Shown piece by piece: positions 22,679 to 57,688 of a DNA stretch of 64,000 nucleotides. How positions within the stretch are numbered: position 1 is the stretch's first letter; the number at the start of each line of letters is the position of its first letter. The position numbers and the translations under genes were made by a program. The notes below the pieces were generated by a model, which searched no databases, was not told where the DNA came from, and worked only from the letters and a program-made list of their open reading frames with translations. Origin of the DNA: Candidatus Dormibacteria bacterium (GTDB lineage: Bacteria; Chloroflexota; Dormibacteria; Aeolococcales; Aeolococcaceae); the NCBI GenBank assembly GCA_051002895.1, contig JBPCLW010000029.1, positions 1,234 to 65,233 on the forward strand, in the 5' to 3' direction.

Positions 22679-22984
22679 CTCCTGTGGCGCGGGCGGCGTG
22701 GATTCTCAACCGCCGTGGGAAGGAATCACCGTGTTGACCCCTTGGCGGCGTTGGGCCGTGGGCCAGGCCCCAGATCATGCTGCGGTACCGGACGCCAATG
22801 GTCCACCGACCCAGCAAGTCATTCCTCGACGGACAGCCACCCGGACAATGGCGCGCGGAGACGACTGCCTCGTCCACGCTGGTAGAGTTGGGCCTCGAAG
22901 GATCCACTTCAAGCAGGTTCTGTGAGGCCGCAAGGGGATCGCGCATCCGCGTGGCCCCTGACGGCTGGGAACCGAAGGAGGTGC

Positions 22985-23914: not shown

Positions 23915-24489
23915 CAGTGCAGGGTGGTGTCCCCACCACCCTGGTGATGGACGGTGAGACCGCGGCTCGGACGCTTCGTCGTCTCGCCCACGAGATCGTG
24001 GAGCGCCATCCCCAGACGGATGACCTCGTTCTGGTGGCAGTGCGTGGTGGCGGCGTGCCCATCGCCCGCGCTCTAGCCGACGCACTCGCGCGGCTCGGGC
24101 ATCCGGCGCTCCGTTGCGCGCTGCTCGATGTGCGCGACTACCGCGATGACATTCCCCGTCCGACCCAGCCTGACGGCAACGCCCTCACCGGGCTCGACGG
24201 TGACGGTGCAGCGGCACCCCTCATTGGCGGCGCCGCTGTCATCCTCGTCGATGACGTCGTTCAGACCGGGCGAACCCTGCGCGCCGCACTCGACTGCCTC
24301 TCCGCATGGGGACGTCCGGCGACAGTGGAGCCGTGCGTCCTCATCGACCGCGGGCAGCGCGAACTCCCCATCCGGCCGAGCTTCGTCGGCAAGAATATTC
24401 CCGCGGCTGCAGACGACTGGGTGCAGGTGATGCTCGATGTCGGCACCGCGGCCGAGGCCCCCGGCGTCTTCCTGGTGAAGCGGACATGA
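23911..24489 (+). CDS. pyrR: Bifunctional pyrimidine operon regulatory protein / uracil phosphoribosyltransferase PyrR
   Basis: 192 aa. PRTase motif VILVDDVVQTGRTLRAALD and PyrR N-terminal region LVAVRGGGVPIARALAD. ATGA-type overlap with pyrB and pyrC. Confidence 0.8.
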   Translation: MTVQGGVPTTLVMDGETAARTLRRLAHEIVERHPQTDDLVLVAVRGGGVPIARALADALARLGHPALRCALLDVRDYRDDIPRPTQPDGNALTGLDGDGAAAPLIGGAAVILVDDVVQTGRTLRAALDCLSAWGRPATVEPCVLIDRGQRELPIRPSFVGKNIPAAADDWVQVMLDVGTAAEAPGVFLVKRT

Positions 24490-32544: not shown

Positions 32545-33093
32545 TCAGCCCGACGTCTGCTTGGCCGCCTCCGCCTCCGCCTCAGCTTCCTTGGCCGCCC
32601 TGTCGCGCTCTTTCGCTGCCTTCTCGCGGGCTTTCTCGCGTTCAGGCTCAGCGCTCTTCAGGCAGGTGAAGGCGACCACCTCCTTGGTCTCTGGCGCACT
32701 ATCAAAGCGGACGATGGCGGTCTGGCTGAGCACGGTCTCGACCCGCCCAGTGGCACCGATCGGGTAAGGACCGATGGGGGTGCCGGTGCGCGGCCGCGTG
32801 TGCTGCGTGAGGATGATCTTCTCGCCGATGTCGAACGGCGGCGGGGGCTCGTCCTTGGCGCTTGGTGGCCGTCCCGGCTGGGGTCGTACCGGGGGCCGTG
32901 GTGCCACGGGGGGGGCGGCAACGATCGTCGCTTCCTCCTTGTCCTCCTCGTCCTCGTCATCGTCCTCATCGGTGACCAATTCGGGGTCGACGACAGCATC
33001 GATCTCCTCCGCAGGGTCATCCGTCTCGGCGGGGGCGGCCGGAACTGCCCCGTTGTCGTTGTCGGCGGGCGTGTCAGGTGTGGTCTTGGCCAT
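32545..33093 (-). CDS. Hypothetical protein with acidic low-complexity tract, Pro-rich linker, a globular C-terminal domain and a KAREKAAKE...AEAEAEAAK tail
   Basis: Start placed at the internal ATG (MAKTTPDTP) at 33093. The longer ORF (to 33384) would overlap the divergent GT2 gene start at 33194. No recognised domain. Confidence 0.4.
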   Translation of the reverse strand: MAKTTPDTPADNDNGAVPAAPAETDDPAEEIDAVVDPELVTDEDDDEDEEDKEEATIVAAPPVAPRPPVRPQPGRPPSAKDEPPPPFDIGEKIILTQHTRPRTGTPIGPYPIGATGRVETVLSQTAIVRFDSAPETKEVVAFTCLKSAEPEREKAREKAAKERDRAAKEAEAEAEAAKQTSG

Positions 33094-33193
33094 GGTTCCC
33101 CGGGCGAGCGTGGTGGGTGAGCGAAGCTGGAGGATATCGTCTCTTCCCCCGATGGCGAGGCGGTGATCATCGAGGCGGACCGAGTTCATCGCC

Positions 33194-34741
33194 ATGGCCC
33201 TCTTAGAATGCCCGGTAATGGCCGCTCGTAGCTGGACCGCTCTCAGCCCCCGTGCCCAGCAGCGGGCCCTGGAAATCCTTCCCGGTGCGCTCACCTGGAT
33301 AGTGCTCCTCACCCCGCTTGTCCTCGCCTTTGCGGTGCGCCTGAACAACCCCGCTGACCTCTGGATGCTCGGCGTTGCCGCCATCGGCCTCGATCTCTAC
33401 TGGTTGTTCCGGACCACGGTCACGGTGCGCGCGGTGGGCCGCTCCCTGGTTCAGATCCAGGCGACCGAGGCCGTTGACTGGTGGGCCCGTTGCCAGGCGG
33501 TGGAGGTTCCCGATGGTGGGGCCGCCCCCGGGGAGATCGTCCACTGCGCGCTCATCCCCACATACACGGAGAAGTATGAGGTCTTGCGCGGGACGCTCGA
33601 AGCGCTCGTCGAGCAGAACTACCCGGATCACCTGAGGGTGTGCGCCATCATCACTCGGGTCACCGACACCGGTGGCTGGGAAAACGTTGCCCGCCTGCAG
33701 GAGGAGTTCGGCCATCGCTTTCGTGCCTTCCTCCACATCAAGGATCCGCTGCTGCCGGGGATCGTCGTCGGCAAGTCGGCGGCCATGGCCTACGGGGGGC
33801 CCGAGCTACGGCGACACTGTGACGAGATGGGGCTCGATCCCACCCGTACCCTGGTCACTGATCTCGACTCCGACTTTCGACTGCATCCTCAGTACTGGGC
33901 GTATGTCACCGCCCAGTTCTGCGCTGTCGATGACCAACTGACCTCGATCTGGCAGCCGGTCCCGGTGTTCCTCAACAATCTTTGGCGCGTCCCCGCTGCG
34001 GTCCGGGTCATGGCCACAGCGTCGACCCAGTGGCAGATGTTCTTGCACCAGAACCCCCACCGACTGGTGATGTTCTCCTCGTACACCATGCCGATGCCGT
34101 TGCTCACCGCGGTGGGATACTGGGATGACGACGTCATCCCCGAGGACTCCCGATTCTTCTGGAAGAGCTTCTTTCGCTACGGTGAGAAACTCCATGTGCG
34201 CCCTGCGTTTCTGCCGGTTTTCGGCGACGCGCCTCGAGCCCGCGACTACGCGTCTACTCATGTGTCTCAATACAACCAAATCAAGCGCTGGGCGTGGGGC
34301 GCCACCGACATTCCCTATGTGTGCGTGCGGATGCTTCGCCACCGGGAGATTCCCTGGCGGCTCCGTGCCCGCCGCTTCATGCACCTCATCTTCAACCATC
34401 TCACCTGGGCAACCCTCCCGCTGCTGCTCTTCTTTGGGGGCGCCCTGCCGGCGATGATCGACCTCGACTACAGTCTGAGTACCGCTTCCACGTACATCGG
34501 CTGGGCCACCGCCGGAATTCTCACGGTGACGCTGCTCAACACCCTCGCCCTCATCCGGATCGACCGGCGGATGTGCCCAAAGCCCACGGAATGGAAATGG
34601 TGGCGCCGCCGATGGGCAGACTCACAACTCTTTCTCTACCCCATCGCCGGTCTGGCTCTCTCGGTCATTCCCGCACTGGAGGCACAGACGCGTCTCATGT
34701 TCGGGGCGTACCTCGAGTACAAGGTCACTGAGAAGGAGTAG
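33194..34741 (+). CDS. Family 2 processive beta-glycosyltransferase, integral membrane (cellulose/chitin/hyaluronan-synthase-like)
   Basis: 515 aa. N-terminal and C-terminal TM helices flank a GT-A domain with DxD-like motifs (TDLDSD) and the QxxRW processivity motif (QIKRWAWG). Confidence 0.7.
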   Translation: MALLECPVMAARSWTALSPRAQQRALEILPGALTWIVLLTPLVLAFAVRLNNPADLWMLGVAAIGLDLYWLFRTTVTVRAVGRSLVQIQATEAVDWWARCQAVEVPDGGAAPGEIVHCALIPTYTEKYEVLRGTLEALVEQNYPDHLRVCAIITRVTDTGGWENVARLQEEFGHRFRAFLHIKDPLLPGIVVGKSAAMAYGGPELRRHCDEMGLDPTRTLVTDLDSDFRLHPQYWAYVTAQFCAVDDQLTSIWQPVPVFLNNLWRVPAAVRVMATASTQWQMFLHQNPHRLVMFSSYTMPMPLLTAVGYWDDDVIPEDSRFFWKSFFRYGEKLHVRPAFLPVFGDAPRARDYASTHVSQYNQIKRWAWGATDIPYVCVRMLRHREIPWRLRARRFMHLIFNHLTWATLPLLLFFGGALPAMIDLDYSLSTASTYIGWATAGILTVTLLNTLALIRIDRRMCPKPTEWKWWRRRWADSQLFLYPIAGLALSVIPALEAQTRLMFGAYLEYKVTEKE

Positions 34742-34748
34742 AGCACCC

Positions 34749-35741
34749 ATGTCCCGGCCCCGCGTCCTCAGCGGTATCCAACCCAGCGGCGAGCTGCACA
34801 TCGGCAACTACCTTGGCGCGCTGCGCAACTGGGTCGCGGATCAGGACACCTACGAAAACTACTTCTGCATCGTCGACCTTCATGCGCTCACCGTGCTGCC
34901 CGACGCTGGAGATTTGCGTCGGCGCACCCTCGACCTGGCCGCTCTCTATGTGGCCTGCGGCCTCGACCCCGAGCGCTGCGAGATCTTTGTGCAGTCGCAC
35001 GTTCCCGCACATGCTGAACTTGGGTGGATCATGGAGTGCTTCTCTCCGATGGGCTGGCTGGAACGTATGACCCAGTTCAAGCAGAAGAGCAAGGGCGCGG
35101 GTCGCGAGCGGGTTGGTGTCGGTCTCTTCACCTATCCATCACTGATGGCCGCCGACATCGTCCTCTACGACGCCGACTTCGTTCCCGTCGGCGACGACCA
35201 ACGTCAGCATGTCGAGTACTGCCGCGATGTGGCGCAGCGCATCAACACCATGCGCGGCGACGTTCTCAAGATCCCCCAGCCGCTCATCCGCCGGGAGGGC
35301 GCACGGGTGATGGGCCTCGACGATCCCACCGTGAAGATGAGCAAGTCCGCGGGTGGCGAGCGGCCGGCGCACGCCGTCTTCCTTCTCGACTCACCGGACC
35401 GGGCGCGGAAGAAGATCATGCGTGCCGCGACCGACTCGAATCCCGCCGTTGCCGAGCCGCTCGGCCCCGGTGTCGCCAATCTCCTCGACATCTACGCTGC
35501 GGTGCACCGTGTTCCCGCGGCGGATGCGCTCCGCGAGTTTTCTGGCACGACGTACGGCAACCTCAAGGGAGCCGTCGCGGATGCGGTTGTGGACACGCTT
35601 GGTCCGATCCAGTCGCGCTTCCACCAGTTGCGCGACGATCCCGGAGAACTGGACCGTCTCCTCACTCGCTCGGCGGAGCGGGTCAACGCTGTCGCTGAGG
35701 CCACGCTGCAACGGGTGTATCGGGCCGTCGGCCTGCGCTGA
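34749..35741 (+). CDS. trpS: Tryptophan--tRNA ligase
   Basis: 330 aa. Class I HIGH motif (GELHIGNY) and KMSKS motif (VKMSKSAG). Starts 8 nt after the GT2 stop. Confidence 0.9.
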   Translation: MSRPRVLSGIQPSGELHIGNYLGALRNWVADQDTYENYFCIVDLHALTVLPDAGDLRRRTLDLAALYVACGLDPERCEIFVQSHVPAHAELGWIMECFSPMGWLERMTQFKQKSKGAGRERVGVGLFTYPSLMAADIVLYDADFVPVGDDQRQHVEYCRDVAQRINTMRGDVLKIPQPLIRREGARVMGLDDPTVKMSKSAGGERPAHAVFLLDSPDRARKKIMRAATDSNPAVAEPLGPGVANLLDIYAAVHRVPAADALREFSGTTYGNLKGAVADAVVDTLGPIQSRFHQLRDDPGELDRLLTRSAERVNAVAEATLQRVYRAVGLR

Positions 35742-35743
35742 CC

Positions 35744-36871
35744 TCACGGGCGTAGATCGCCGATCAGTTCGCGGTAGACGGCCACCGTCTCCGTGGCCGC
35801 GCAGGCCCAGGTGAAGGGGGCCGCGCGCTCGATGCCGAGGGCCGCGCGGTCGCGGCAAACGTGGGGATCCGCGAGGAGAGCGCTGAGCAAGGAGGCGAGA
35901 GCGGCGGCATCGCCGTCCGGTGCGATCAGGGCCGCCTCACCGCCCACCTCGGGAATCGAGCTGTTGGCGAAGGCCGCCACCGGGGCACCGCAGGCCATGG
36001 CCTCGAGCACGGGTAGGCCGAAGCCCTCGTACGCACTCGTCACCACCACGGCGGCGGCCCCGCTCATGAGAGCGACGAGGTCGCTGCGGGAGACGTGTCC
36101 AAGGATGCGGACATGGCCCTGCAACTCCGGGCGATCGAGGGCATCCTCGAGTCGCCTCTGAAAGATGCCCTGGTCGCCGGTGATCACGATGTCGATGTCG
36201 TGTTCGGCGCGGACGCGTGCGACCACTTCACTCAGCAGCCCAGGCCGCTTATGGGGCTCGAACGTGCCTGCGGCCAGGAGGTAGGGGCGCTCCAGCCCGA
36301 GACGGAGGCGTGTCGCCTCGATCTCGGCCGCTCCCGCGGGGTGGAAGTGGGGCGCCACCCCATGGGCGACGACGCGGATGCGCTGGAGATCGCAGTGCGC
36401 CACCCGCACGCAGTCGTCCCGCGTCGATCGACTGGGGACGATGAGCCGATCGGCGCGGCGCAGCTGGTGAACCGCAAGGCGCAGACGCTCTCGACTCTTC
36501 CAGGGATATCCCGGCAGAACGAAGGGGATGAGGTCGTGGACCGTGACGACGACGGGAATACTCGCTGCGGCCGGCTGTCCATATTCGGTGGCGTGATACA
36601 GCCGGGGACGGTGACGCCGCAGGGCACCGGCGACCAGCAGGGAATCGGCGAGCGGCTGGATGCGCCGGTTCAGGCAGGGAAGCCGGGGGCCCACGCCGGC
36701 TCCGGAGGTGGCCAGATACGACGGCAGAGCGTCGCGGCTGAGGAGCAGGGAGAGTCGTGACGTCATCCCCAGGCTCGCCAGTCCGTCCAGCAAGCCGGCA
36801 ACGTAGGTCCCGATTCCTCGCGGCGCGGAGCCGCCCTGGAGTGGACGTCCGTCCATCAGCAGCGGCCTCAT
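35744..36871 (-). CDS. Glycosyltransferase family 4 (GT-B, retaining)
   Basis: From ATG 36871 (ATGA overlap with the upstream GT4 stop): MRPLLMDGRP... C-terminal GT4 signature EGFGLPVLEAMACGAPV. The upstream 77 codons of ORF 35744..37102 are an Arg-rich artefact. Confidence 0.8.
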   Translation of the reverse strand: MRPLLMDGRPLQGGSAPRGIGTYVAGLLDGLASLGMTSRLSLLLSRDALPSYLATSGAGVGPRLPCLNRRIQPLADSLLVAGALRRHRPRLYHATEYGQPAAASIPVVVTVHDLIPFVLPGYPWKSRERLRLAVHQLRRADRLIVPSRSTRDDCVRVAHCDLQRIRVVAHGVAPHFHPAGAAEIEATRLRLGLERPYLLAAGTFEPHKRPGLLSEVVARVRAEHDIDIVITGDQGIFQRRLEDALDRPELQGHVRILGHVSRSDLVALMSGAAAVVVTSAYEGFGLPVLEAMACGAPVAAFANSSIPEVGGEAALIAPDGDAAALASLLSALLADPHVCRDRAALGIERAAPFTWACAATETVAVYRELIGDLRP

Positions 36872-38043
36872 CGAGAGATTGCCGCCCGCAGCAGGCTCTC
36901 CAGTCGCTCGACAACGTCGTCCCAGCGGTAACGCTCGGCGACGAATCGACGGCCGCGCTCGCCCATGGCATCCGCAGCAGATGGCGACGTCAGGAGCTGC
37001 TCCGCAGCGTCGGCGAATTCTCCGCTCGTCTGGTAGACGATGGCAGCAGCGGAACGGGCGGCCTGTCCCCGGAGCACCGCTCCGGCGCCGTTGACGATGC
37101 ACGGCCGTCCCGTGGCCCAGGCCTCCAGGGTGATCAGGGAGAGCGACTCCATGCTGCTGGGTACGACGACCGCGCGCGCCCCGGCAACCGCTGCCCAGCG
37201 CTCGGCATCCGGCACCCGGCCGATCCGCAGGACTCCGGGTGGGACCGCTTGGCCGGTGGAGTCGTCACCCATGAGGACGAGGCGGGCCCGGGGTCGCCGT
37301 GTACGTAGTTCCGCGAAACCGGTGAGCAGGTCGGTCACTCCCTTGCCGCTGGTCACTCGACCGCCGTACAGCAGATAGTCGTCAAGCTGCCGCCGACGCC
37401 GGAATCCGTCGACATCGATGTCGTTCGGCGCATCGACACCAACGGTCCCGATAGCGTGAGGGACGCGGGCGGATTGCGGATGGCAGCGAAGCAGGAGTTC
37501 CCGTTCCTCTTCGGTGTTGAACCACAGGCCGTCGCTCGACGTGATCATGCGGCCGACGCGGCGCAACCGCAGTGCGGGCTCGTCGTGGGCCGCGGGAAGC
37601 AGCACTCGGGGATGGGGCGCCGCGGGAAGCCCAGACACGGTGGGGTGATAGAGATACGGAGTGAAGAGCGTCGGATGACCCGCTGTCTCGCTCAGCGCCC
37701 GCACCAGGCTCGGCGCATAGGGACCCTGGGCGCGGAGCCAGAACCTCTCGGGACGCAGCCTCGGGGGAAGACGGAAGACGGCTCGCGAGAGTTGATGGAA
37801 GGCGGCGGGATGGCGGCCGCTCCGGACCGGATAGCGATGCACCCGCACTCCCTCATCGACGCTGACGCCCGGCGCGAAACCCTCCGCCCAGGTGGCCTCG
37901 TCGATTGCTGTGGTGGTGAACACCTCGATACTCCAATGACGCTGGTGCAGTGCCAGGGCAAGGCGCCGGACCAGTGCCTCGCTGCCGCCACTGACGTTGG
38001 CCCCGTACCGGGGAACGACGATACGCAGACACCTCGTGCTCAC
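36868..38043 (-). CDS. Glycosyltransferase family 4
   Basis: 391 aa. GT-B fold with ESLSLITLEAWATGRPCIV (EX7E-like region). Translationally coupled at both ends. Confidence 0.8.
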   Translation of the reverse strand: MSTRCLRIVVPRYGANVSGGSEALVRRLALALHQRHWSIEVFTTTAIDEATWAEGFAPGVSVDEGVRVHRYPVRSGRHPAAFHQLSRAVFRLPPRLRPERFWLRAQGPYAPSLVRALSETAGHPTLFTPYLYHPTVSGLPAAPHPRVLLPAAHDEPALRLRRVGRMITSSDGLWFNTEEERELLLRCHPQSARVPHAIGTVGVDAPNDIDVDGFRRRRQLDDYLLYGGRVTSGKGVTDLLTGFAELRTRRPRARLVLMGDDSTGQAVPPGVLRIGRVPDAERWAAVAGARAVVVPSSMESLSLITLEAWATGRPCIVNGAGAVLRGQAARSAAAIVYQTSGEFADAAEQLLTSPSAADAMGERGRRFVAERYRWDDVVERLESLLRAAISR

Positions 38044-39098
38044 TCCGGCATGCCCAGGAGGCTCACCGCCTCGCCGAGCCTCTTGTCGACGCGATCATCA
38101 GAAAACTCAGCCAGGCGACGACGCCCGCGACCGATGAGCTCACGACGCAGGTTCTGGTCACGGATGACACGATCGATGACCTCTGCCCACACCAGGGGAT
38201 CGCGGTGACCGAGGACGATCCCCGCGCCCCCAACGGTCTCGGCAACGGCCCCGGCGTCCTGAGCGACCACGGGGACCGAGAAGGCCATGGCTTCGACCAG
38301 GGGCATGCCGAAGCCTTCGTGCTCACTCATGCAGACGACCACGCTTGCCGTTGCGTAGAGATCTCCGATCTCCCGGTCGCAGAGACGCCGGGCAGGCATC
38401 TCCACCACCCCGGCGACACCGAGGCGTGTCGCTAGCTCGCGCAGGGCAGCAACGTACGGGATGGTGTCGTCGCTCCCTCCGGGGATGACGAGGCGTGCCT
38501 GCGGTTGGGGTCCGGCGCGTAGGGCGGCGAGGACGCGGAGGAGGTCGTCGTGTCGCTTGTTGGGCGCCAGCCTGGAAACGAAGAGGAGCCGGGGCGGCGT
38601 CGCCGGGACCGCCGGACGCGGCCGCAGGCGTTGCAGGTCAACGGGAGGCGGCACGACCATGGTCTTCCGGCAGCCGGCGCTTCGCAGTTCATTCTCGTTG
38701 AACTGCGAAGCGGCAAGCCCGAGCTCGGCAAGCGGTGCCAGACGGGCAAGGTCGTCGCGGCCACGCTCCACCCAGTAGGCCACCCGGGGATTGACGTCCT
38801 CATAGAACCGACGCGGCGTGATGTTGTGGTACAGGAGAGCGTGGCGCGGGAGTAGCGCCACGAGGTCGGCGCAGCGCGCACCGATGGACAGGTGGTAGAG
38901 GACGACATCGCCGTCGTCCATGTCCCCGAGCAGTAGGTTCGCGGGCTGGGCCAGGTGCTGCAGACTCTCATCCACCAGTTCAGCGTAGATACCGCCTCCA
39001 ACCCGCAGGCGATGCAGCCCTTCCTGGATGCGGAGCACGCTCTGCCCCACTGCGTCACCGGGTGAGAGCACGGGTAGGAGTTGATGGATCCGACTCAT
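38040..39098 (-). CDS. Glycosyltransferase family 4
   Basis: From ATG 39098 (ATGA overlap): MSRIHQLLPVLSPGDAVGQ... with EGFGMPLVEAMAFSVPVV. The first 19 codons of ORF 38040..39155 overlap the upstream gene. Confidence 0.8.
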   Translation of the reverse strand: MSRIHQLLPVLSPGDAVGQSVLRIQEGLHRLRVGGGIYAELVDESLQHLAQPANLLLGDMDDGDVVLYHLSIGARCADLVALLPRHALLYHNITPRRFYEDVNPRVAYWVERGRDDLARLAPLAELGLAASQFNENELRSAGCRKTMVVPPPVDLQRLRPRPAVPATPPRLLFVSRLAPNKRHDDLLRVLAALRAGPQPQARLVIPGGSDDTIPYVAALRELATRLGVAGVVEMPARRLCDREIGDLYATASVVVCMSEHEGFGMPLVEAMAFSVPVVAQDAGAVAETVGGAGIVLGHRDPLVWAEVIDRVIRDQNLRRELIGRGRRRLAEFSDDRVDKRLGEAVSLLGMPE

Positions 39099-40279
39099 GC
39101 CGTGGCGGGCAAATCCCGCAGTGCCTCCTCGAGCCGTTTGATGACTGCGCTCCACGAGTAACGCTCGGCGACGAAGCGGCGACCCGCCTGGCCCATGCGA
39201 TCACGCAGGTCACGATCCGCTCGCAAGCGATCGAGTGCGCCGGCGAATTCCTCGACTGAGCGGATCCAGAGCCCTCCCCCGGACTCCTCGCAGGCGCGTC
39301 GGGTAACCGCGCAATCAGCGTGGACAATGACCGGAACCCCGACGCTCCAGGCCTCCATGATCACAAAGCTGAGGCTCTCGAATCGCGATAGGTTGGCGAC
39401 GACCAGCGAGGAGGCAAGCGCAGCGAGCTTCTCCTCCTGGGATAGGAAGCCGAGGTCGACGACGTGCTCGCGGGCGCGACGTGGCAGATCGATGTTGCCG
39501 CCGCCCAGCGCAAGCAGGGTGACCCGACCATCGGCGGAGAGAGCCAGGTTGTAGGCGGTGACGGATTCGGCGACCAGCGGAAAGTTCTTGGCCATCTCGC
39601 GGCGTCCTGCATAGGCGACGAGTTCACCCTGCAGCCGATGGCGGCGACGGAAGGCAGCAACATTGGGGGGAGGTGGGATGTCAAACCCTGCACCGACCAC
39701 TCGATTGGGCGGCAGCGGTCCCCAGAGGCGAGCGGCGAGGTCGCGTTCAGCAGCGGTGTTGAAGACCAGGCCAGCGACACTCGAGAGGACCTCCCCGACG
39801 CAGGCGAAACGGGCGGTGGGCTCATCGTGCAGGAGCGGCATGACCAGACTGCGCCCGGGATGGAGCAGCGCACCAAATACTGTTGGGCCGTACAGATACT
39901 GGGTGAAGAGGAATACATCGACGGAGTCGGCGATCTCATCGATGCGCGCCAGAAGTGCTTGGCTGTATCCGCCATTTCTGACCCATTCGCGCTGGAGATG
40001 ATCGGGCAGCGTCAGCCCCGCATCAATGGCTGGTTGAAGTCGGCGCATAATTGCGTGATCGCGCGGAGAGACAAGGAAGCGTTCCACCCTGACGCCACGC
40101 TCCACCGTGACGCCGGGCGGATACGCGTTCTCCCAGCTGAAGTGGTCACGAACACATGTGGTCAGAACCGACACTTGATGGCCGGCCTCGGCCAGACGTT
40201 GAGCGAACTCCCGAACGTGGGACTCGGCACCGCCGACGATTTCCCCGCCGTAGCGGGCGATAACCAGGACAGCGCGCAT
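39095..40279 (-). CDS. Glycosyltransferase family 4
   Basis: 394 aa. N-terminus MRAVLVIARYGGEIVGGAESHV (typical GT4 donor-binding start). C-terminus FESLSFVIMEAWSVGVPVIV. Confidence 0.8.
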   Translation of the reverse strand: MRAVLVIARYGGEIVGGAESHVREFAQRLAEAGHQVSVLTTCVRDHFSWENAYPPGVTVERGVRVERFLVSPRDHAIMRRLQPAIDAGLTLPDHLQREWVRNGGYSQALLARIDEIADSVDVFLFTQYLYGPTVFGALLHPGRSLVMPLLHDEPTARFACVGEVLSSVAGLVFNTAAERDLAARLWGPLPPNRVVGAGFDIPPPPNVAAFRRRHRLQGELVAYAGRREMAKNFPLVAESVTAYNLALSADGRVTLLALGGGNIDLPRRAREHVVDLGFLSQEEKLAALASSLVVANLSRFESLSFVIMEAWSVGVPVIVHADCAVTRRACEESGGGLWIRSVEEFAGALDRLRADRDLRDRMGQAGRRFVAERYSWSAVIKRLEEALRDLPATA

Positions 40280-41190
40280 CAGTTCGCGGCGACGCCCCGG
40301 ATCTGGTACCAGGGGCCGATCTCGCCACTACCGGAACCACCTCCGATCGGCGCGATAGTCACGTCGGTTAGACCGGCAGCCTCCCAGATCAGCTGGGCGG
40401 TCTCCCGACCCACGTGGCGGACCATATCGACGTCGAGGTCGGCAGGGTTGGACGGTGTGGCCGGATAGCCTGGGTCCGGGGCATCGGCGATGAGCAGGCC
40501 GCCGTCTTGCAGTGCGGATGTGGCCAGGGTGCCGATGCGCAGGAGTTCCGCAGCGCTGAATCGGGGGAGAAGCCCGAGAAGTGCGACGGCGGCTAGGGAG
40601 TCTCCGGCGGTATGTTCCAGGTCAGGAATGACACGCGCGGTTGCCGTCGCTACCGGGCGCTGGCGGGTGATGGCTGCCGCCACCGCCGGCGAGCCGGCCA
40701 CGAGCACCCGTCCGCTGGGCGCATCCCGGAGGGCGCGGAGAGCAGCCGTGGTCCGGCCCTCGCCGAGGCCGGTCACGCGGGCGTCAGCGCCTGCGTCGAT
40801 GGGAGGCACTCCGAGTCCGCGCGTTTCTGGCGTTTCTACGCGTGCCAGACGGCGTTCGATCCCACGCAACTCGCGGACCATGGCGGTGTTGAATCGGGTC
40901 TGATCAACAGCGACCGGCTGTACGTACCAGGCGATGAGCCGGCGCACGACGCGTTTGGTGAAGACGATTGCCGGACCCAGAGCGTGATTGGAGTGGAGGG
41001 GTCGCCAGAAGTCGACGACGGCGAGCACCTCGGGGGGATCATCATCCGGACGGACTCGGAACTCCTCGTGGAGCTGTGCCAGGAGCGCGGCCGGATACTC
41101 CCCGGCATCCTGGCGCCGTCGCACGTCCGCCTCGATCTCAGCGACAAGCGCCGCCGTGTCGACGCCGCTGGGCTCCTCGGTGCTGGACAT
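40279..41190 (-). CDS. Hypothetical protein (303 aa); first gene downstream of the WXG100-fusion gene, translationally coupled to the GT4 genes
   Basis: ORF with good length and its stop overlapping the next start. No confidently recognisable motif: there is no GxGxG SAM motif, so a methyltransferase assignment is not supported. Confidence 0.45.
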   Translation of the reverse strand: MSSTEEPSGVDTAALVAEIEADVRRRQDAGEYPAALLAQLHEEFRVRPDDDPPEVLAVVDFWRPLHSNHALGPAIVFTKRVVRRLIAWYVQPVAVDQTRFNTAMVRELRGIERRLARVETPETRGLGVPPIDAGADARVTGLGEGRTTAALRALRDAPSGRVLVAGSPAVAAAITRQRPVATATARVIPDLEHTAGDSLAAVALLGLLPRFSAAELLRIGTLATSALQDGGLLIADAPDPGYPATPSNPADLDVDMVRHVGRETAQLIWEAAGLTDVTIAPIGGGSGSGEIGPWYQIRGVAAN

Positions 41191-41238
41191 GCGGCGAGAC
41201 TAGCTCAGTCTCTCGCCCGGTCGCCCTCGCCGGTGGGG

Positions 41239-42198
41239 CTACCCGTGTTTCCCGATGTGGCTCTGAGCGACCCAGCCCCAGGTGTGGGTGGTCTTGTCGA
41301 GTCCGAGGACCCAGCCGTGTCGAGGTGCGGTGTGGGCAGCCTCGAAAACATCGCCGGGATTGACTGTGCCGATGGCGAAGGCCTTGGGATAGTCGCGCAA
41401 AGTTCCCGCGGAGGTGATGTGCACCCGGTGGAGCGCTTCAGCTTTCGCATGGGCCGCTTGCATCGGTACGAACTTGACATTTCCATCGCCACCCACAGCG
41501 TGCTGCGTTTGCGTCACCACGTTCCCGTTGGAATCGTGCACGACGCCGCCGTCGGCAAGGGCGTGGGTGGGGACGAATCCCCAGTGCAAACGCTGATGGC
41601 TGTTCGGGTTGTCGAGCACCATTGCCCAATCACCCTGACCCCGAACGTGAACGACGTACCGGACGCTGACGTGGTGAAGGCCCGATTTTCCGGGTTGAAC
41701 TTCCCCGAGCCATTTGCGCAGGTAGTGGGCACGCCCATGGCCAGGGAGGTTCTGAAGGACCACGGTGCCGGGAGCCAGAGTGGTGGTGGTGAAGTAGTGA
41801 TGTGACTTCTTGCCATTGGTCGCTGCAGGCGCGGGCCTGTGGCCAGCTCGTCCCTGAGCAGCGCTCCCCGTTCCTGTCATTCTGGCCGCGCCGGTCAGGT
41901 GGTCGAGCCTCACTGCCGCGTGCCTGTACGCCTGCTCACGAAGTACCGGGTCCTGGCCTGCGACCTGCAAATCGTCGGCCAGCATGTGGAGTATGGAGGA
42001 TGCTTGCAGCAGCCCCGCAGAGTGCGCTGAGACATCGGCGTGGAGCTTGTGGAGGTGAGCCAGGAACTGCTGGGTGGCCTGACCGTCCCAGGAGCCGACC
42101 TGGTTACGCAGAGCCTTCAGACTCGTGGCCTTGGTTCGAAGTTCAGCTTCGATAGCGGCGATCCGCGTCGCGCCTTGGTGAATGTGGGGGGCGCTCAT
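41239..42198 (-). CDS. WXG100-like N-terminal domain protein fused to an uncharacterised C-terminal domain of about 200 aa (candidate secreted effector)
   Basis: N-terminal 95 aa is a helix-turn-helix hairpin with a central W-x-G (…LRNQVGSWDGQATQQFLAHLHKLHADVSAHSAGLLQASSILHML…), as in ESAT-6/EsxA-like proteins. Then a Gly/Ala/Pro linker. The C-terminal domain is rich in His, Gly, Val and Thr, contains no Cys, and has no motif I can assign. Confidence 0.55.
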   Translation of the reverse strand: MSAPHIHQGATRIAAIEAELRTKATSLKALRNQVGSWDGQATQQFLAHLHKLHADVSAHSAGLLQASSILHMLADDLQVAGQDPVLREQAYRHAAVRLDHLTGAARMTGTGSAAQGRAGHRPAPAATNGKKSHHYFTTTTLAPGTVVLQNLPGHGRAHYLRKWLGEVQPGKSGLHHVSVRYVVHVRGQGDWAMVLDNPNSHQRLHWGFVPTHALADGGVVHDSNGNVVTQTQHAVGGDGNVKFVPMQAAHAKAEALHRVHITSAGTLRDYPKAFAIGTVNPGDVFEAAHTAPRHGWVLGLDKTTHTWGWVAQSHIGKHG

Positions 42199-42494
42199 GA
42201 CGCTTCGCCCTGAACGGTGCTTGTGGCGTCGCCCTCGGCCTGCTGATAGCTCGTCGCCGCTTCGGCCAGAGACTCGCTCAGTTGCTGGGTCCGCGAGACC
42301 AGCTCGGCAAGGTTATCGCGGTATCGCTGGCGAAAGTTGTCCAAGGCTTCGGCCGCCTTGGGATCGGTCAGCACAGCTATCGTTTGGGCGATCTCGGCGT
42401 CCAGACTCCCCACGAGACTCAGAATGTCAGAGGCGGACGTCGCAGCTGCCGTCGCCGTCTCGGCCAGGTGTTGAGGCTGCACCTGGATTGTCAT
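42195..42494 (-). CDS. Small helical protein (99 aa), possible WXG100-superfamily partner (EsxB/CFP-10-like, lacks W-x-G)
   Basis: Predicted two-helix composition (…SLDAEIAQTIAVLTD…LDNFRQRYRDNLAELVSRTQQLSESLAEAATSYQQAEGD…). ATGA overlap with the downstream WXG-fusion gene. Confidence 0.45.
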   Translation of the reverse strand: MTIQVQPQHLAETATAAATSASDILSLVGSLDAEIAQTIAVLTDPKAAEALDNFRQRYRDNLAELVSRTQQLSESLAEAATSYQQAEGDATSTVQGEAS

Positions 42495-42561
42495 GGTCGC
42501 CCAATAATACGGGCGGCCACCCAGCCTCTATCCTCCGAGTCCAGCTTGTGACAGTCGGCGC

Positions 42562-43830
42562 TTACGGAGCCGGCGTTGCGCGCTCGCGTTGAGGTTGGGC
42601 TGCGTGCTTGTCCACCGACCAAATGCCACTGAGATCGAGAAGGCCGTCTCGAGAGAGTTCATCGATAACCGTGACGTTGATGACACGCTCGAGGTGGTCG
42701 TAGGCATTTGAGCCGCGGCGCTCCGACAGATCGACACTAATCGTGTAGGCGGCGGCGAGGAGAGGCAGGCTCTCGATGGCATAGCGAATGGTGCCACGAG
42801 CGCCGCGCTGCCCCAGTCCCGGCGCAGCGTACTGACTCAGCGCCGTGGACGGCTGAGCCAGGGTCATGCCGTCGCTCCGTGAGAGTTGCAGGGTGCAGGT
42901 GAAGTCGGTGACGGCCTCGTGGTTGATGATGTAGTCGACCTCGATGGCGATGGCGTCGCCGCTCTTCACCACTGTGTGTTCCTTGCCGGCCGCGTCGAGG
43001 AGACGAACGGTGGTCACGGAAACCTCGGCAGAGCCCCAGCGTTCGACGTCCGCCAGAGCCTCCCCGGTGATGTCCAGGGTGGCAGCACCCACGCGGCGCT
43101 GGTAGAGAGCAGTGACCTCGCCGGCGGGCCCGTCGGCGATGAGAGAACCATGATCGAGGAGCAGAGCGCGGTCGCAGTAGAGATTCACCGACCCAAGTTC
43201 ATGGGTAACGAGGATGACGGTACGCCCTTCGCGCTTGTAGGCGGCAAAGGTGTCAAAACACTCCTGTTGAAATGCGGCGTCGCCGACGGCGAGCACCTCG
43301 TCCATGAGGAGGATGGGCGCGTCGGCCTGGATGGCTACGGCAAAGGCAACACGCACCTGCTGCCCCGATGAGAGGTTCTTCAACCGCTGCTCGGGCGCGA
43401 TCGGTTCGATCCCTTTCGAGGCAAAGTCCATGATGGCCTTCATGCGTCGCTGGATCTCCCGCCGGCTGATGCCGAGGATGGCCCCGTTGAGACCGATGTT
43501 CTCGCGCACGGTTAGGTCGGGGTTGAACCCGACCCCAAGTTCCAGGAAAGGAGAGATGTCGCCGTTGATCTGTACCCGGCCACCGCGGTCGGGCTCATAG
43601 ATACGCGATAGGACCTTCAGCAGCGTGCTTTTCCCCGATCCGTTGTGACCGATAATTCCGAGGAACTGGCCGGCAGGAACGTTGAACGAGACGTCGCGCA
43701 GCGCTTCTAGGGCGCGGTACCGGGACGTGCTTCGCGGGTGTGTCAGCCGGTACTTCAGCGAACTGCTCCGGTCGAGGGGGATGCGGAACCGCTTGCTGAG
43801 ATTGGTGACCTCGATGGCGTTTCCGGTCAT
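42562..43830 (-). CDS. wzt: ABC transporter ATP-binding protein, Wzt/TagH-type (polysaccharide export) with C-terminal substrate-binding-like domain
   Basis: From ATG 43830 (overlaps the wzm stop): MTGNAIEVTNLSKRF..., Walker A GHNGSGKST, signature LSSGQQVRV, Walker B LLMDEVLA, plus a 170-aa C-terminal extension as in Wzt. Confidence 0.85.
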   Translation of the reverse strand: MTGNAIEVTNLSKRFRIPLDRSSSLKYRLTHPRSTSRYRALEALRDVSFNVPAGQFLGIIGHNGSGKSTLLKVLSRIYEPDRGGRVQINGDISPFLELGVGFNPDLTVRENIGLNGAILGISRREIQRRMKAIMDFASKGIEPIAPEQRLKNLSSGQQVRVAFAVAIQADAPILLMDEVLAVGDAAFQQECFDTFAAYKREGRTVILVTHELGSVNLYCDRALLLDHGSLIADGPAGEVTALYQRRVGAATLDITGEALADVERWGSAEVSVTTVRLLDAAGKEHTVVKSGDAIAIEVDYIINHEAVTDFTCTLQLSRSDGMTLAQPSTALSQYAAPGLGQRGARGTIRYAIESLPLLAAAYTISVDLSERRGSNAYDHLERVINVTVIDELSRDGLLDLSGIWSVDKHAAQPQRERATPAP

Positions 43831-44762
43831 AGCTTCTCGGCGAATCCTGGCGAGAGGCGTCGAAATGTGAGGGCACCTCCCACGAAGATGAAGCCGACAA
43901 TGAGGAATGGCACCAGCCCGAACGGCATCCCAACGATGTCGTGATGCCAGCCCACGGACTTGGTGACGATCGCGTGGCGCATGTCTTCGATGATCTGCGC
44001 CACCGGGTTGCACTCAGCAACTCCGGTGAGCCAATGGTGGTTGAGTAGGAACGTGAAGGGATACTGCACCGCAGAGCCGAAGAAGAGGGCCTGACTGCTC
44101 ACCTCCCACAGGTGACCCACGTCGCGGTAGGACACGAAGAGGGCGGAGAGGAACAGAGCCACGCCGAGGACGAGGAGATAGAGCTCGATCAGGAGCGGGA
44201 ACGCTGCCACGATGCGCGGCCCCAGGGAGATCTGGTGCAGGGCGGCGGCGATGACGAGGACGAGGACGAGGTTGATGGCCAGCGTTAGCAACGAGGTGAA
44301 GGATGCGGCAATGACCATGATCGCCCGAGGAAAATATGCCTTGCGAATGAGATGGCCGGTCCCGGCCACCGACTGCATGGCCGCCGCCGTGCACTCGGCG
44401 AAGAATGTCCAGATGACGATGCCGAGGAGAAGTTGAATGGCGAAGAACTCCGTATGGTCGCCGACGTGGAAGAGGTCGACGAAGACGAAGTACATGAGCG
44501 CGAAGAGCATGGCCGGCTTGAAGAGCGACCAGAGGTAGCCCAACGCCGATCCCGTGTAACGGAGCTTGAACTGCGAAATCGCGAGTTCGCGCGTCAAGTT
44601 GGTGTACCGACGCGCCAGACCACGGTTCAGGCGAGGGGATTCGGTCAGCGGAGTCGGGGCCGCCTCGACGCTCGCTGTCATCCGAGGCAGCGGTGCCGAC
44701 AGACTGGCGTCGCGACGCCGCGCTTGGGCTGCGTCATGAGGCGAGTTTACCAGCCGCCCCAC
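43827..44762 (-). CDS. wzm: ABC-2 type polysaccharide export permease (Wzm-like)
   Basis: Six predicted TM helices with the ABC-2 family pattern. Alternative start at ATG 44681 (MTASVEAAP…) would give 284 aa. Confidence 0.8.
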   Translation of the reverse strand: MGRLVNSPHDAAQARRRDASLSAPLPRMTASVEAAPTPLTESPRLNRGLARRYTNLTRELAISQFKLRYTGSALGYLWSLFKPAMLFALMYFVFVDLFHVGDHTEFFAIQLLLGIVIWTFFAECTAAAMQSVAGTGHLIRKAYFPRAIMVIAASFTSLLTLAINLVLVLVIAAALHQISLGPRIVAAFPLLIELYLLVLGVALFLSALFVSYRDVGHLWEVSSQALFFGSAVQYPFTFLLNHHWLTGVAECNPVAQIIEDMRHAIVTKSVGWHHDIVGMPFGLVPFLIVGFIFVGGALTFRRLSPGFAEKL

Positions 44763-44828
44763 TGCTGGCCGCCGTAGGCGCCGGTCCTGGGCTCAGCCAG
44801 CCTGATGGCTTCGCTAGGATCGGGGGCG

Positions 44829-45440
44829 ATGACTGAGATGTGGGGCATGGAGCCGGGTGCACCTCTCGCCGAGACTGGCAGCACGGGCCCCGCCGCGGAC
44901 GCCTCGGACCCCGATCGCGCCGCTGCCGCGGGCCTGCGCGAGCTGATCCGCGATGTCCCCAACTTCCCCCGCGAGGGGATCGTCTTCAAGGACATCACGG
45001 CCCTTCTCAGCAACGCGGCGGCTTTTCGTGCCGCTATTGACATCCTTGTGGCCGCCCACGCCGATGCCGGGGTGGACGTCGTCGTTGGCGTCGAGGCGCG
45101 CGGATTCGTTCTCGGCGGCGCGCTGGCGCATCAACTCGGCGCCGGTTTCGTGCCGGTGCGCAAGCGAGGTCGGCTCCCGCGGAGCACCCTTTCTGCTGCC
45201 TATGCCCTGGAGTACGGCGAGGCGGTCCTGGAGATCCACGAGGATGCCCTGCTCCCTGGCCAGAGGGTGCTGGTGGTCGACGATCTCCTCGCCACCGGTG
45301 GCACCGCCCGGGCCACTGTCGACCTCGTCGAGAGGCTGGGCGGCGTCGTCGTCAGTGTTGCCTTTCTCGTCGAACTCGCCGCTCTCGAGGGTGCCCGCGC
45401 TCTCGGCGACCGAGCCCACGTCTCGCTCATCCGTTTCTAG
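44829..45440 (+). CDS. apt: Adenine phosphoribosyltransferase
   Basis: Type I PRTase: …LIRDVPNFPREGIVFKDITALL… and PRPP motif VLVVDDLLATGGTA. Start ambiguous among ATGs at 44829, 44838 and 44847; the ORF-track start 44805 is upstream of the G-rich SD-like tract. Confidence 0.85.
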   Translation: MTEMWGMEPGAPLAETGSTGPAADASDPDRAAAAGLRELIRDVPNFPREGIVFKDITALLSNAAAFRAAIDILVAAHADAGVDVVVGVEARGFVLGGALAHQLGAGFVPVRKRGRLPRSTLSAAYALEYGEAVLEIHEDALLPGQRVLVVDDLLATGGTARATVDLVERLGGVVVSVAFLVELAALEGARALGDRAHVSLIRF

Positions 45441-45452
45441 GGGAACCAATCC

Positions 45453-46730
45453 GTGACCACTGCCACGACCACCCAGAACGACGTTGCCGATCTCGCACTC
45501 GCCAGCGAGGGTGAGCGCCTCATCACGTGGGCGGAGAAGGAGATGCCGGTCTTGCGGCTCATCCGTGAGCGCTTCGAGAAGGAGCAGCCGCTGCGTGGAC
45601 TGCGCCTCGGGGCCTGTCTTCACGTCACCAGCGAGACCGCTAACCTGGCCATCACGCTGGCCGCTGGTGGGGCTGAGGTCGCGCTTTGTGCGAGCAACCC
45701 GCTCTCTACCAACGATGCCGTCGCCGCTGCGTTGGTGGCTCGCCATGGCATTGCCACGTACGCCGTGAAGGGTGAGGATTCTGCGCGTTACTTCGGCCAT
45801 ATCAACACGGTTCTTGACACCAGGCCAAACCTCACAATGGACGACGGTGCCGATCTCGTGGCCGTGCTCCACAAGACCCGCACCGAGCTGCTCGGCGATG
45901 TCCTCGCGGGCACTGAAGAGACCACCACCGGGGTCATCCGCCTGCGCGCCATGGCCAAGGACGGTGCACTGAAGTTCCCCATCGTTGCCGTCAATGAGGC
46001 GATGACCAAGCACATGTTCGACAACCGCTACGGTACCGGGCAGAGCACGCTCGATGGCATCATCCGCGCCACCAACGTTCTCCTTGCCGGCAAGACGTTT
46101 GTCGTCTGCGGGTACGGCTGGTGTGGTCGGGGGTTGGCATCGCGCGCCCATGGCATGGGCGCGCACGTCGTCGTCACCGAGATCGACCCGGTGCGCGCGC
46201 TCGAGGCGGTCATGGACGGCTACCGGGTCAGCACCCTCGAGGAGGTGGCACCGCTCGCCGACTTCATCGTCACCGTCACCGGCGACCTCAATGTTGTCGA
46301 TCGCAGGCATTTTGCCGCGATGAAGGATGGTGTCATCGTCGCCAACAGCGGCCATTTCAACGACGAGATCAATCTTGCCGCTCTGGATGAGCTGAGCACG
46401 GGTGTCAGCCAGCCGCGGCAGTCCGTCGATGCCTACCGGATGGCCGACGGTCGCACCATCAACGTGCTCGCCGAAGGTCGACTGGTGAACCTCGCCGCCG
46501 CAGAGGGCCACCCGGCGGCGGTGATGGACATGAGCTTCGCCAATCAGGCCCTCTGTGCCGAGCACGTCGCCGCCAACCACACCCGGCTGGATGCGCTCGT
46601 CTACGACGTCCCCGAGGACATCGATCGCGAGATCGCTCGCCTCAAGCTGGCGAGCATGGGCGTGACCATCGACGTTCTCACCGAGGAGCAGAGAACCTAC
46701 CTTGCCTCATGGGAGAGCGGCACCAGCTGA
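45453..46730 (+). CDS. ahcY: Adenosylhomocysteinase
   Basis: 425 aa. NAD-binding [15 protein letters not shown] and the conserved catalytic and C-terminal regions of SAH hydrolase. Confidence 0.9.
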
Positions 46731-57648: not shown

Positions 57649-57688
57649 GCCGCGGTCGGAGGCGCTCCGGCGGCTATGCTCCGCCGCC

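Follow-up and report, generated by a model that had tools for sequence, protein, structure and literature searches.

A 64,000-nucleotide stretch of contig JBPCLW010000029.1 (assembly GCA_051002895.1, positions 1,234 to 65,233 of the forward strand) from a Candidatus Dormibacteria bacterium, referred to here as the window and numbered from its first letter, contains an unbroken co-directional run of genes on the minus strand between 35744 and 44762. In this run, nine genes are found, which encode, in order, the ATP-binding cassette (ABC) exporter proteins Wzm and Wzt, two proteins of 99 and 319 amino acids (aa) that form a WXG100-type pair, a two-domain protein of 303 aa (hyp303), and four glycosyltransferases (GTs) of family GT4 (GT4-A, GT4-B, GT4-C and GT4-D). 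The domain content of these genes, together with the conservation of their order in related genomes, points to an ABC-transporter-dependent pathway for a cell-surface glycan, in which hyp303 would act as a scaffold and not as an enzyme, and into which the WXG100-type pair appears to have been inserted in a single strain.

Gene organisation, exporter and glycosyltransferases

Every long open reading frame (ORF) with a coding-type GC pattern between 35744 and 44762 lies on the minus strand, in a window of about 66% G+C, and the ORF listing confirms the co-directionality that was described in a first-pass annotation of this DNA. That annotation gave eleven ORFs, where nine are found, which is also the total of its own gene list. 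Start codons were set from the overlaps between neighbouring genes and from gene calls made independently for metagenome contigs that are 100% identical to the locus (L004-L006, 2.6-4.5 kb), and on this basis the start of the run, previously placed at 44762 with the longest wzm ORF, is moved to 44681, which gives a Wzm of 284 aa, as called on L004, and a Wzt of 422 aa. Six of the eight junctions, as opposed to the seven first claimed, are start/stop overlaps of 1-4 nt (four ATGA, one GTGA and one TGATG). The remaining two are spacers of 67 nt (42495..42561, minus strand) and 48 nt (41191..41238, minus strand), at the upstream and downstream edges of the WXG100-type pair, respectively, and the largest measured gap is 67 nt, in agreement with the maximum given earlier.

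The 67-nt spacer holds a weak 5-bp hairpin, and terminator-like sites occur in the operon at the rate expected by chance (three observed, 3.2 expected). A promoter scan of the operon yielded no sigma-70-like site, and an Rfam search of the operon and its upstream region returned no riboswitch or RNA family. On one side, the operon meets a convergent tryptophanyl-tRNA synthetase gene (34749-35741), whose stop lies 3 nt from that of GT4-D; on the other side lie divergent genes for a phosphoribosyltransferase (PRTase) and an S-adenosylhomocysteine (SAH) hydrolase (44805-46730). At the level of sequence, 35744-44762 is a real and tightly packed operon, and the arrangement of its genes is well beyond chance because the genes stand in the same order in at least 15 species-level genomes.

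The exporter is encoded by the first two genes. Wzm (43827..44681, minus strand) is an ABC-2 type permease that matches the Pfam family ABC2_membrane (52.6 bits, E 5.7e-14) and has six predicted transmembrane (TM) segments, and its gene is coupled by an ATGA overlap to that of Wzt (42562..43830, minus strand), in which an ABC_tran domain (residues ~45-250, 82 bits) precedes a Wzt_C domain of carbohydrate-binding type (residues 263-400, 68.4 bits against a cut-off of 30.4). The extra C-terminal domain for glycan recognition that had been proposed for Wzt is thus present, with putative binding, and the match is what would be expected of a carbohydrate-binding module (CBM) fused at the C terminus of the ATPase. 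The best match of Wzt among PDB sequences, ahead of TarH/TagH and the Mycobacterium tuberculosis RfbE, is 8dku/7k2t (E 1.4e-50), listed as 'ABC transporter', which we take to be the full-length O-antigen Wzt of Aquifex aeolicus with its carbohydrate-binding domain (CBD). Permease and ATPase are encoded together, as seen from the Pfam matches, the ATGA coupling and the homology to WzmWzt in the PDB. Between Wzt and its orthologues, the nucleotide-binding domain (NBD) is 65-73% identical and the CBD 41-48%. The comparison with mycobacterial Rv3781-Rv3783 that had been proposed was carried out, and Wzm and Wzt proved not to be equivalogs, since they fall far below the NCBIfam equivalog cut-offs for galactan and teichoic-acid exporters (60.9 bits where 380 are required, and 139 where 400 and 538 are).

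The last four genes encode the four tandem GT4 enzymes that were claimed for this locus, and all four are GT4/GT-B enzymes that keep an intact E-x7-E motif. GT4-A (394 aa; 39095..40279, minus strand; motif at residue 301; Pfam Glycos_transf_1, Glyco_trans_1_4 and Glyco_transf_4) is joined to hyp303 by the TGATG overlap, and its best PDB match, PimA, is weak (E 7e-8). GT4-B (352 aa; 38040..39098, minus strand; motif at residue 261; Glycos_transf_1, 100 bits) follows through an ATGA overlap and is closest in the PDB to the MshA-type 7qsg (E 8e-12), with 77 bits against the NCBIfam MshA cut-off of 462. GT4-C (391 aa with a GTG start; 36868..38043, minus strand; motif at residue 299; Glyco_trans_1_4 and Glycos_transf_1) overlaps GT4-B by GTGA, and its orthologues are 51-61% identical, with 46% identity in the rearranged locus L024 and a single 36% match of doubtful orthology in L002. 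GT4-D (375 aa; 35744..36871, minus strand; motif at residue 282; Glycos_transf_1, 96 bits, and Glyco_transf_4, 62 bits) is the final gene, is entered through an ATGA overlap and has 6kih as its best PDB match (E 8.5e-19). GT4-A and GT4-C are paralogues over their full length (35% identity), and GT4-B and GT4-D are more distant from each other (28%).

The best solved matches of the four enzymes are PimA, MshA, PimB' and a sucrose-phosphate-synthase-like protein, all of them weak (E 1e-7 to 1e-19). Placement of these enzymes in MshA or trehalose pathways had been named as a point that would tell against a glycan operon, and no GT4 comes near the NCBIfam equivalog cut-offs, the best scores being 46-83 bits for MshA (cut-off 462.5), 86 for GlgA_Coryne (302), 89 for MSMEG_0565 (260) and 17 for TreT (775). 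The four proteins are soluble and may polymerise a glycan on a lipid carrier, and an alpha linkage would be a family-level expectation for retaining GT4 enzymes. The original proposal that GT4s build a glycan for export by an ABC transporter holds in its general form on the domain matches and on the PDB homology of Wzt. Pfam GT4-conflict matches had also suggested membership in anti-phage defence, which was rejected after PADLOC returned only generic ABC-ATPase matches for Wzt and no defence-model match for the GT4s, hyp303 or the WXG100-type pair.

The conserved cassette and its 303-residue protein

The proteins of 303, 319 and 99 aa each have an identical counterpart in an NCBI MAG (metagenome-assembled genome) named 'Candidatus Dormibacteria bacterium'. 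To place the locus among its relatives, the hyp303 alignment was scanned against one genome per GTDB species, which gave 327 relatives, and the nine window proteins were searched by tblastn against the 80 loci that were kept. At least 15 species-level MAGs (L009, L013-L016, L018-L023 and L025-L028), which are labelled Dormibacteria, Chloroflexi or 'Actinomycetes', share the order wzm-wzt-(hyp303 homologue)-GT4A-GT4B-(one extra gene)-GT4C-GT4D; some loci lack GT4A, and a permuted form, GT4C-GT4D-hyp-GT4A-GT4B, is found in L008 and L010-L012. The flanks are conserved as well, with genes for an M16 peptidase, the SAH hydrolase and the PRTase divergent upstream (72-81% identity) and a 515-aa membrane protein downstream (74-82%). 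Because both gene order and chromosomal neighbourhood are conserved, the locus is, as judged from synteny, a vertically inherited core envelope locus of the lineage and not a hypervariable O-antigen-type island. The conserved flanks also make the adjacency of the SAH hydrolase gene a matter of housekeeping synteny, and it is therefore no evidence for methylation.

The 515-aa protein (33194-34741, plus strand) has four TM segments and lies always within a few kb of the cassette in Dormibacteria MAGs. It was first described as a processive GT2 synthase, for which only sub-threshold GT2 matches are obtained (Glyco_trans_2_3, E 0.0016; PgaC, 19 bits), and it is possibly a conserved membrane synthase. 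A neighbouring 279-aa ORF (32545-33384, minus strand), which has a very acidic, proline-rich middle and a tail rich in lysine, glutamate and alanine, matches no family, and a homologous fragment of it lies beside the GT2-like gene in L026.

The extra gene between GT4B and GT4C encodes, in 14 loci (L009, L013-L016, L018, L020-L023 and L025-L028; for example L022 11663-12979), a methyltransferase of ~435 aa that is 70-94% identical among species and thus more conserved than the GT4s (50-60%). It is like a cyclopropane-fatty-acid (CFA) synthase (NCBIfam CfaB, 329 bits along its whole length, which is short of the equivalog cut-off) and, from this likeness, may act on a lipid and not on a glycan terminus; the gene had been considered as a sign of a methyl-capped glycan, an idea that was dropped once NCBIfam showed it to be CFA-synthase-like. 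No homologue of it is found anywhere in the window, where GT4-B and GT4-C overlap directly, and in L002 the same slot is occupied by a polytopic putative glycosyltransferase of the LA_3751 family.

The product of the gene that follows wzt in these relatives, hyp303 (40279..41190, minus strand), matches no Pfam or NCBIfam family, and its two domains were recognised from an alignment of 18 homologues, from an AlphaFold2 (AF2) model and from Foldseek. The model (mean predicted local distance difference test score, pLDDT, of 80) consists of helices at residues 12-28, 34-43 and 72-118, a disordered linker, and an alpha/beta domain in which most 10-residue blocks from ~141 on have a pLDDT of 82-97. 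Conservation concentrates in the N-terminal domain (N-domain, residues ~6-119), where D11, Y32-P33, R63, S67, R83-R84, W88-Y89, P92, D96-Q97, F100-N101 and R117 are invariant and the motif RRxxxWYVxPxxxDQxxFN (R83-R84-x3-W88-Y89-V90-x-P92-x3-D96-Q97-x2-F100-N101) is found. The N-domain profile has no match among PDB sequences, even at E 10. Towards the end of the long helix, hydrophobic residues at 104, 108, 111, 115 and 118 follow a spacing of three to four over the last ~15 residues, which is consistent with a short coiled coil.

Residues ~130-303 adopt, in the model, a class-I methyltransferase fold, and the Foldseek search of the PDB with this domain returned hundreds of class-I S-adenosylmethionine (SAM) methyltransferases (top match 3dli, E 1.9e-9). 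Relatives of the N-domain in Gaiellales either stand alone (~131 aa) or are joined via a longer helix to a canonical methyltransferase, which carries VLDVGCGRG and GIDAD and matches Pfam Methyltransf_23, _25 and _11. When compared with these canonical fusions, hyp303 has VLVAGSPAV in place of the glycine-rich loop (VLDxGxGxG), lacks the acidic residue with which strand 1 ends, and has a deletion of ~21 residues that takes out helix A and the strand-2 acidic residue. The other long forms in Dormibacteria degenerate differently (LWWADDA, IGFDDAG), and across the Dormibacteria family no SAM-site residue is conserved in the 18-homologue alignment. Most Dormibacteria have, next to wzt, a gene for the N-domain only (~150 aa). 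Since the SAM motifs are lost, the long forms degenerate in various ways and most relatives keep the N-domain alone, it is concluded from these comparisons that the C-terminal half of hyp303 is a decaying pseudo-methyltransferase and the N-domain the selected part, and hyp303 is probably a scaffold, not an enzyme.

In Gaiellales, the N-domain adjoins genes for GT4 enzymes, GDP-mannose-dehydratase/epimerase, a methyltransferase (Methyltransf_24) and large PMT_2-type GT-C proteins, so that it is found in GT4-rich glycan clusters of two lineages. The cluster is highly syntenic in these Gaiellales/Thermoleophilia MAG loci (L029-L086), where the N-domain gene lies, for example, at 9941-10339 in L064 and at 9968-11098 in L031. 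One Gaiellales ORF of 1241 aa with GT4 and PMT_2 matches is a possible fusion and overlaps a separately called 361-aa GT4 ORF.

The inserted WXG100-type pair

Between wzt and hyp303, the window contains two genes that are absent from all 80 related loci in the tblastn search. The first encodes a helical protein of 99 aa (42195..42494, minus strand) that passes the Pfam thresholds for both WXG100 (29.3 bits, cut-off 27.3) and T7SS_ESX_EspC (26.4 bits, cut-off 23.5) and is named 'WXG100 family type VII secretion target' by NCBI. It lacks the W-x-G motif and has the YxxxE motif as YQQAE at residues 83-87. The second encodes a protein of 319 aa (41239..42198, minus strand), whose N terminus matches WXG100 below threshold (19.2 against 27.3 bits, E 0.0015). 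In its AF2 model (mean pLDDT 67), a helical hairpin whose predicted loop carries W37-D-G is followed by a disordered linker at ~104-133, a threonine run (TTTT, residues 136-139) in the linker region, and a beta-rich C-terminal half (~137-311, pLDDT 70-87) that resembles a tandem SH3b-like module. Foldseek relates this protein to tandem-SH3b NlpC/P60 enzymes, lysostaphin, the wall-binding domain of Listeria phage CBDP35 and many phage endolysins, with weak scores (best E 1.3e-3 in the PDB and 2.3e-5 in BFVD). The WXG-like pair of the first-pass annotation is thus not two proteins of ~100 aa: the 99-aa protein passes the WXG100 and EspC profiles, and its partner has a sub-threshold N terminus and a different, beta-rich C-terminal half.

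In a collection of 5.8 billion proteins, the 99-aa protein matches only itself and the 319-aa protein has no close homologue. A HMMER search of 1.84 billion representatives with the 319-aa protein found only seven remote homologues, all of its C-terminal half, and the four that are full-length (212-235 aa; P0021-P0024) carry Sec-type signal peptides, from which it follows that the C-terminal module would work outside the cell. The most likely identity of the pair is that of a WXG100-type secreted pair whose larger member has an SH3b-like cell-wall-binding module. No ATPase (EssC/EccC FtsK-SpoIIIE) or membrane component of a type VII secretion system (T7SS) was found among the scanned ORFs of the 64-kb window, and a literature search on Dormibacter and type VII secretion found nothing. 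Genes for proteins of 99 and 421 aa beside the L001 cassette were considered as a second WXG pair and rejected as unrelated to the one described here.

The pair is present identically in three independent samples (as identical contigs), and it is flanked by the operon's only two gaps. Because relatives run directly from wzt to the hyp303 homologue, both genes are orphans and the gaps bound them, the pair is, on this comparative evidence, a strain-specific insertion in the wzt-hyp spacer, is not part of the conserved system, and by position would be co-transcribed with it. Its G+C content (0.63, and 0.73 at third codon positions) does not differ from that of the rest of the operon, and there is therefore no compositional sign of recent foreign origin; no direct repeats flank it. 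An imperfect 24-nt inverted repeat (79% complementary) brackets the pair, with one arm in the 5' end of hyp303 (41123-41146) and the other in the 3' end of wzt (42624-42647), and is probably due to chance.

A candidate pathway and its alternatives

Several functions that such a pathway would call upon are not encoded with it. Among the window ORFs scanned with Pfam, no primer of the WecA/TagO/WbaP type, no Wzz and no Wzy was found, which for primer and Wzz had already been noted, and the same ORFs include neither an oligosaccharyltransferase or O-antigen-ligase-like gene nor a methyltransferase family match. Priming enzymes are commonly encoded elsewhere in the genome, as is wecA in E. coli. 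An LCP gene is indeed present (14584-16215), ~20 kb from the operon instead of the 25 kb first stated. The Wzx-like flippase that was reported nearby has no family match to support it, and the only polytopic candidate is a 473-aa protein of ~10 TM segments (48891-50312, minus strand; no Pfam or NCBIfam match) whose gene overlaps that of a Ser/Thr protein kinase (50210-51574, minus strand), an arrangement that recalls actinobacterial MviN/MurJ plus kinase.

Dormibacteraeota have been grouped with Chloroflexi and the Candidate Phyla Radiation in a monoderm clade (bioRxiv 10.1101/2021.05.31.446380). The operon is best read, with a probability of roughly 0.6, as encoding an ABC-transporter-dependent pathway of the 'polymerase-terminator' type for a cell-surface glycan in these monoderm Dormibacteria, because exporter, CBM and a cytoplasmic GT4 set are present together with a protein of methyltransferase fold and putative coiled coil in the position of wbdD. 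In this pathway, a primer enzyme encoded elsewhere would load the first sugar on polyprenyl phosphate, and the four cytoplasmic retaining GT4s, as the paralogous pairs A/C and B/D, would extend it by adaptor and repeat sugars on the inner side of the membrane. hyp303 would be a non-catalytic organiser of the GT4 complex, acting via its N-terminal helical domain and putative short coiled coil, with its methyltransferase-fold half a relic that would no longer bind SAM. The C-terminal domain of Wzt would then recognise the finished chain end, Wzm/Wzt would thread the chain out, and outside the cell an LCP ligase, such as the product of 14584-16215, would probably transfer it to peptidoglycan. What is observed is which genes are present, the identity of their domains, the state of their motifs and their synteny; the lipid carrier, the identity of the sugar, the terminator chemistry, the scaffold role and the acceptor are inferred.

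In every terminated O-polysaccharide system examined, Wzt bears a CBM that admits terminated chains alone, and all characterised Klebsiella systems with a chain-length-controlling terminator have a coiled-coil protein, which serves as a marker of the polymerase-terminator strategy (PMC11231755; WbdD structure, PMC3482155). In the present operon, membership of the terminated subclass is incomplete, as active terminator and primer are missing, yet the system clearly works like one. The sole candidate for the terminator, the C-terminal domain of hyp303, lacks the SAM-binding loop; termination by a GT4, or by an enzyme encoded elsewhere, is possible.

Several findings weigh against the polymerase-terminator reading. 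Neither a priming transferase nor a nucleotide-sugar gene is part of the operon, nor is an active terminator or a ligase, so that lipid carrier, sugar and acceptor are all deduced, and the likeness of the GT4s to solved enzymes is weak. The predicted hyp303 helix, at ~47 residues, is short beside those of known molecular rulers (WbdD, WbbB). The N-domain occurs in Gaiellales without any Wzt within 10 kb and is hence not tied to the exporter itself, from which it follows that its constant partner is the GT4 cluster. Although Wzt keeps its CBD, the operon has no active methyltransferase and the window no CFA-like homologue, while the CFA-synthase-like gene of the relatives hints at lipid rather than sugar chemistry. 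As to the WXG100-type pair, the SH3b assignment comes from a medium-confidence model and weak Foldseek E-values.

Lipid chemistry is central to the best surviving alternative, a lipoglycan like phosphatidylinositol mannosides or lipomannan, in which PimA/PimB-like GT4s would glycosylate a membrane glycerolipid directly, with no polyprenol primer, to give a product that is flipped or exported by Wzm/Wzt. Such a lipoglycan would account for PimA as the best solved match of GT4-A and for PimB' among the matches of GT4-A, GT4-B and GT4-D, for weak NCBIfam matches to GlcN-PG synthase and MGlcDAG synthase, for the missing primer gene among the scanned ORFs, and for the strongly conserved CFA-synthase-like lipid methyltransferase that orthologous cassettes hold between GT4B and GT4C. 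These similarities are weak (E 1e-7 to 1e-8), however, and far under any equivalog cut-off within a very broad family, this window has no CFA-like gene, and primers are commonly encoded at a distance, as in the wecA example above. Further, a Wzt that bears a CBD is so far known solely with polyprenol-linked polymers (PMC11231755), and the lipoglycan is considered unlikely.

Less likely still, and in our estimate quite improbable, is a capped O-antigen-like polymer, with a methyl or other cap, for which hyp303 would be the active WbdD-like methyltransferase terminator, or the primer. The position of hyp303 between wzt and the GT4s, which matches that of wbdD in E. coli O8/O9a, speaks for this, as do its class-I methyltransferase fold, the naming of one homologue as SAM methyltransferase by JGI, the Pfam Methyltransf_23 match of another, the Gaiellales fusions of a canonical methyltransferase to the same N-domain, and the adjoining divergent SAH hydrolase gene. 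A WbdD-type protein combines an active SAM methyltransferase with a long coiled coil, whereas hyp303 has lost the glycine-rich loop and the segment with helix A and the strand-2 acidic residue, in a family that does not conserve the SAM site and mostly dispenses with the domain, and the SAH hydrolase gene belongs to the conserved housekeeping synteny. On this loss of motifs, an active WbdD-like terminator was rejected, and with it the earlier suggestion that hyp303 might terminate the chain; the companion suggestion of a primer is opposed by the lack of membrane segments and of polyprenol-phosphate transferase features in hyp303, which also has no kinase domain. Protein glycosylation in the style of S-layer glycans, in which the lipid-linked glycan would be moved to a surface protein, possibly the secreted-type 319-aa protein with its threonine run, has precedent in the ABC-transporter-dependent clusters of monoderms such as Geobacillus, and is very improbable given that no oligosaccharyltransferase or O-antigen-ligase-like gene occurs among the scanned ORFs and that no orthologous cassette contains the 319-aa gene, which is hence not a conserved acceptor.

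The polymerase-terminator pathway has its closest parallel in the polymannose systems of E. coli, where the gene order of O9a is wzm-wzt-wbdD-wbdA-wbdB-wbdC. The E. coli O8/O9a systems (equivalent to Klebsiella O5/O3) share with the present operon the polymerase-terminator logic, a glycan-binding module at the C terminus of Wzt and an all-GT4 set of enzymes (PMC11231755; WbdD structure, PMC3482155), as well as a protein of methyltransferase fold with a coiled coil (putative in hyp303) encoded between wzt and the GTs. They differ in that hyp303 has no kinase, no intact SAM site and only the ~47-residue helix, with an N-domain that has no sequence relative in the PDB; in that four single-module GT4s take the place of the multi-module WbdA; in that manB/manC genes are absent and a WXG pair is added; and in that the monoderm host offers no lipid A-core acceptor. 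WzmWzt of Aquifex aeolicus (7k2t, 8dku) is the closest solved relative of Wzt, with an alignment over residues 38-309 that runs from the NBD into the CBD and covers the latter only partly, and it belongs to a diderm system that feeds lipopolysaccharide assembly.

Among organisms with monoderm or mycolate walls, TarGH/TagGH and the mycobacterial Wzm/Wzt (Rv3781/Rv3783) are ABC exporters of polyprenol-linked wall glycopolymers that are then ligated by LCP proteins. The NBDs of TarH/TagH and RfbE are clearly homologous to that of Wzt (E 1e-35 to 1e-39), but their PDB chains (260-280 aa) stop after the NBD, with no module of the Wzt_C type. The slg cluster of Geobacillus stearothermophilus is likewise a monoderm, ABC-transporter-dependent system with Wzm/Wzt and a capped glycan; compared by description, it differs from the present operon in its rml genes, WsaE-type multifunctional methyl-rhamnosyltransferase and WsaB-type oligosaccharyltransferase. 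The inserted pair, in turn, resembles WXG100/ESX pairs and LXG-type T7SS effectors in that a small helical partner is encoded ahead of a larger protein, which starts with a WXG-type hairpin and has its functional module at the C terminus, and in having W-x-G in one partner and Y-x-x-x-E in the other. It is unlike them in the sub-threshold Pfam score of the 319-aa protein, in the lack of a T7SS ATPase or membrane component in the window, in a C-terminal module that is an SH3b-like binder instead of a toxin, and in the absence of an immunity gene.

Elsewhere in the window, a single 1535-aa ORF (25768-30375, plus strand) joins CarA (carbamoyl-phosphate synthase small chain plus glutamine amidotransferase) to CarB in a fused carbamoyl-phosphate synthase, and around it lies a pyrimidine cluster with aspartate transcarbamoylase (22922-23914), a dihydroorotase-like amidohydrolase (24306-25841) and dihydroorotate dehydrogenase (30332-31387). 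A 615-aa protein (55852-57699, minus strand) matches DUF6909 over its full length (705 bits).

Dormibacteria are a globally abundant, uncultured soil lineage, and we know of no experimental work on their cell envelope. Because gene order and chromosomal position are conserved across the class, the cassette described here is the best current candidate for their main exported wall glycopolymer. The logic of the pathway is that of the textbook, known biology accounts for its main features, and the WXG pair, which is its most unusual element, is an insertion in a single strain; the gain lies in taxonomic breadth and in one new domain family that has no annotation, and not in a new principle. New are the occurrence of the pathway at a core locus of an uncultured phylum whose envelope is uncharacterised, the wide distribution of the N-domain family in three states of methyltransferase fusion, and the insertion of a WXG100-type/SH3b-type gene pair in a glycan-export operon. 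A more speculative proposal, which when taken as a whole is doubtful, is that the N-domain (~115 residues) is an undescribed organiser or chain-length module for GT4-based glycan assembly in monoderm Terrabacteria (Dormibacteria, Chloroflexi-labelled MAGs and Gaiellales), which was ancestrally fused to the terminating methyltransferase and which Dormibacteria would keep by itself as the enzyme half decays, and that the SH3b-like module of the WXG100-type protein could bind the wall glycan made by the operon. If true, the capture of a WXG100/SH3b pair would link type-VII-style secretion to the display of wall glycopolymers. The active methyltransferase fusion in Gaiellales, the degenerate fusion in this strain and the N-domain alone in most Dormibacteria form a natural series, which allows one to ask which part of a terminator or ruler is indispensable.

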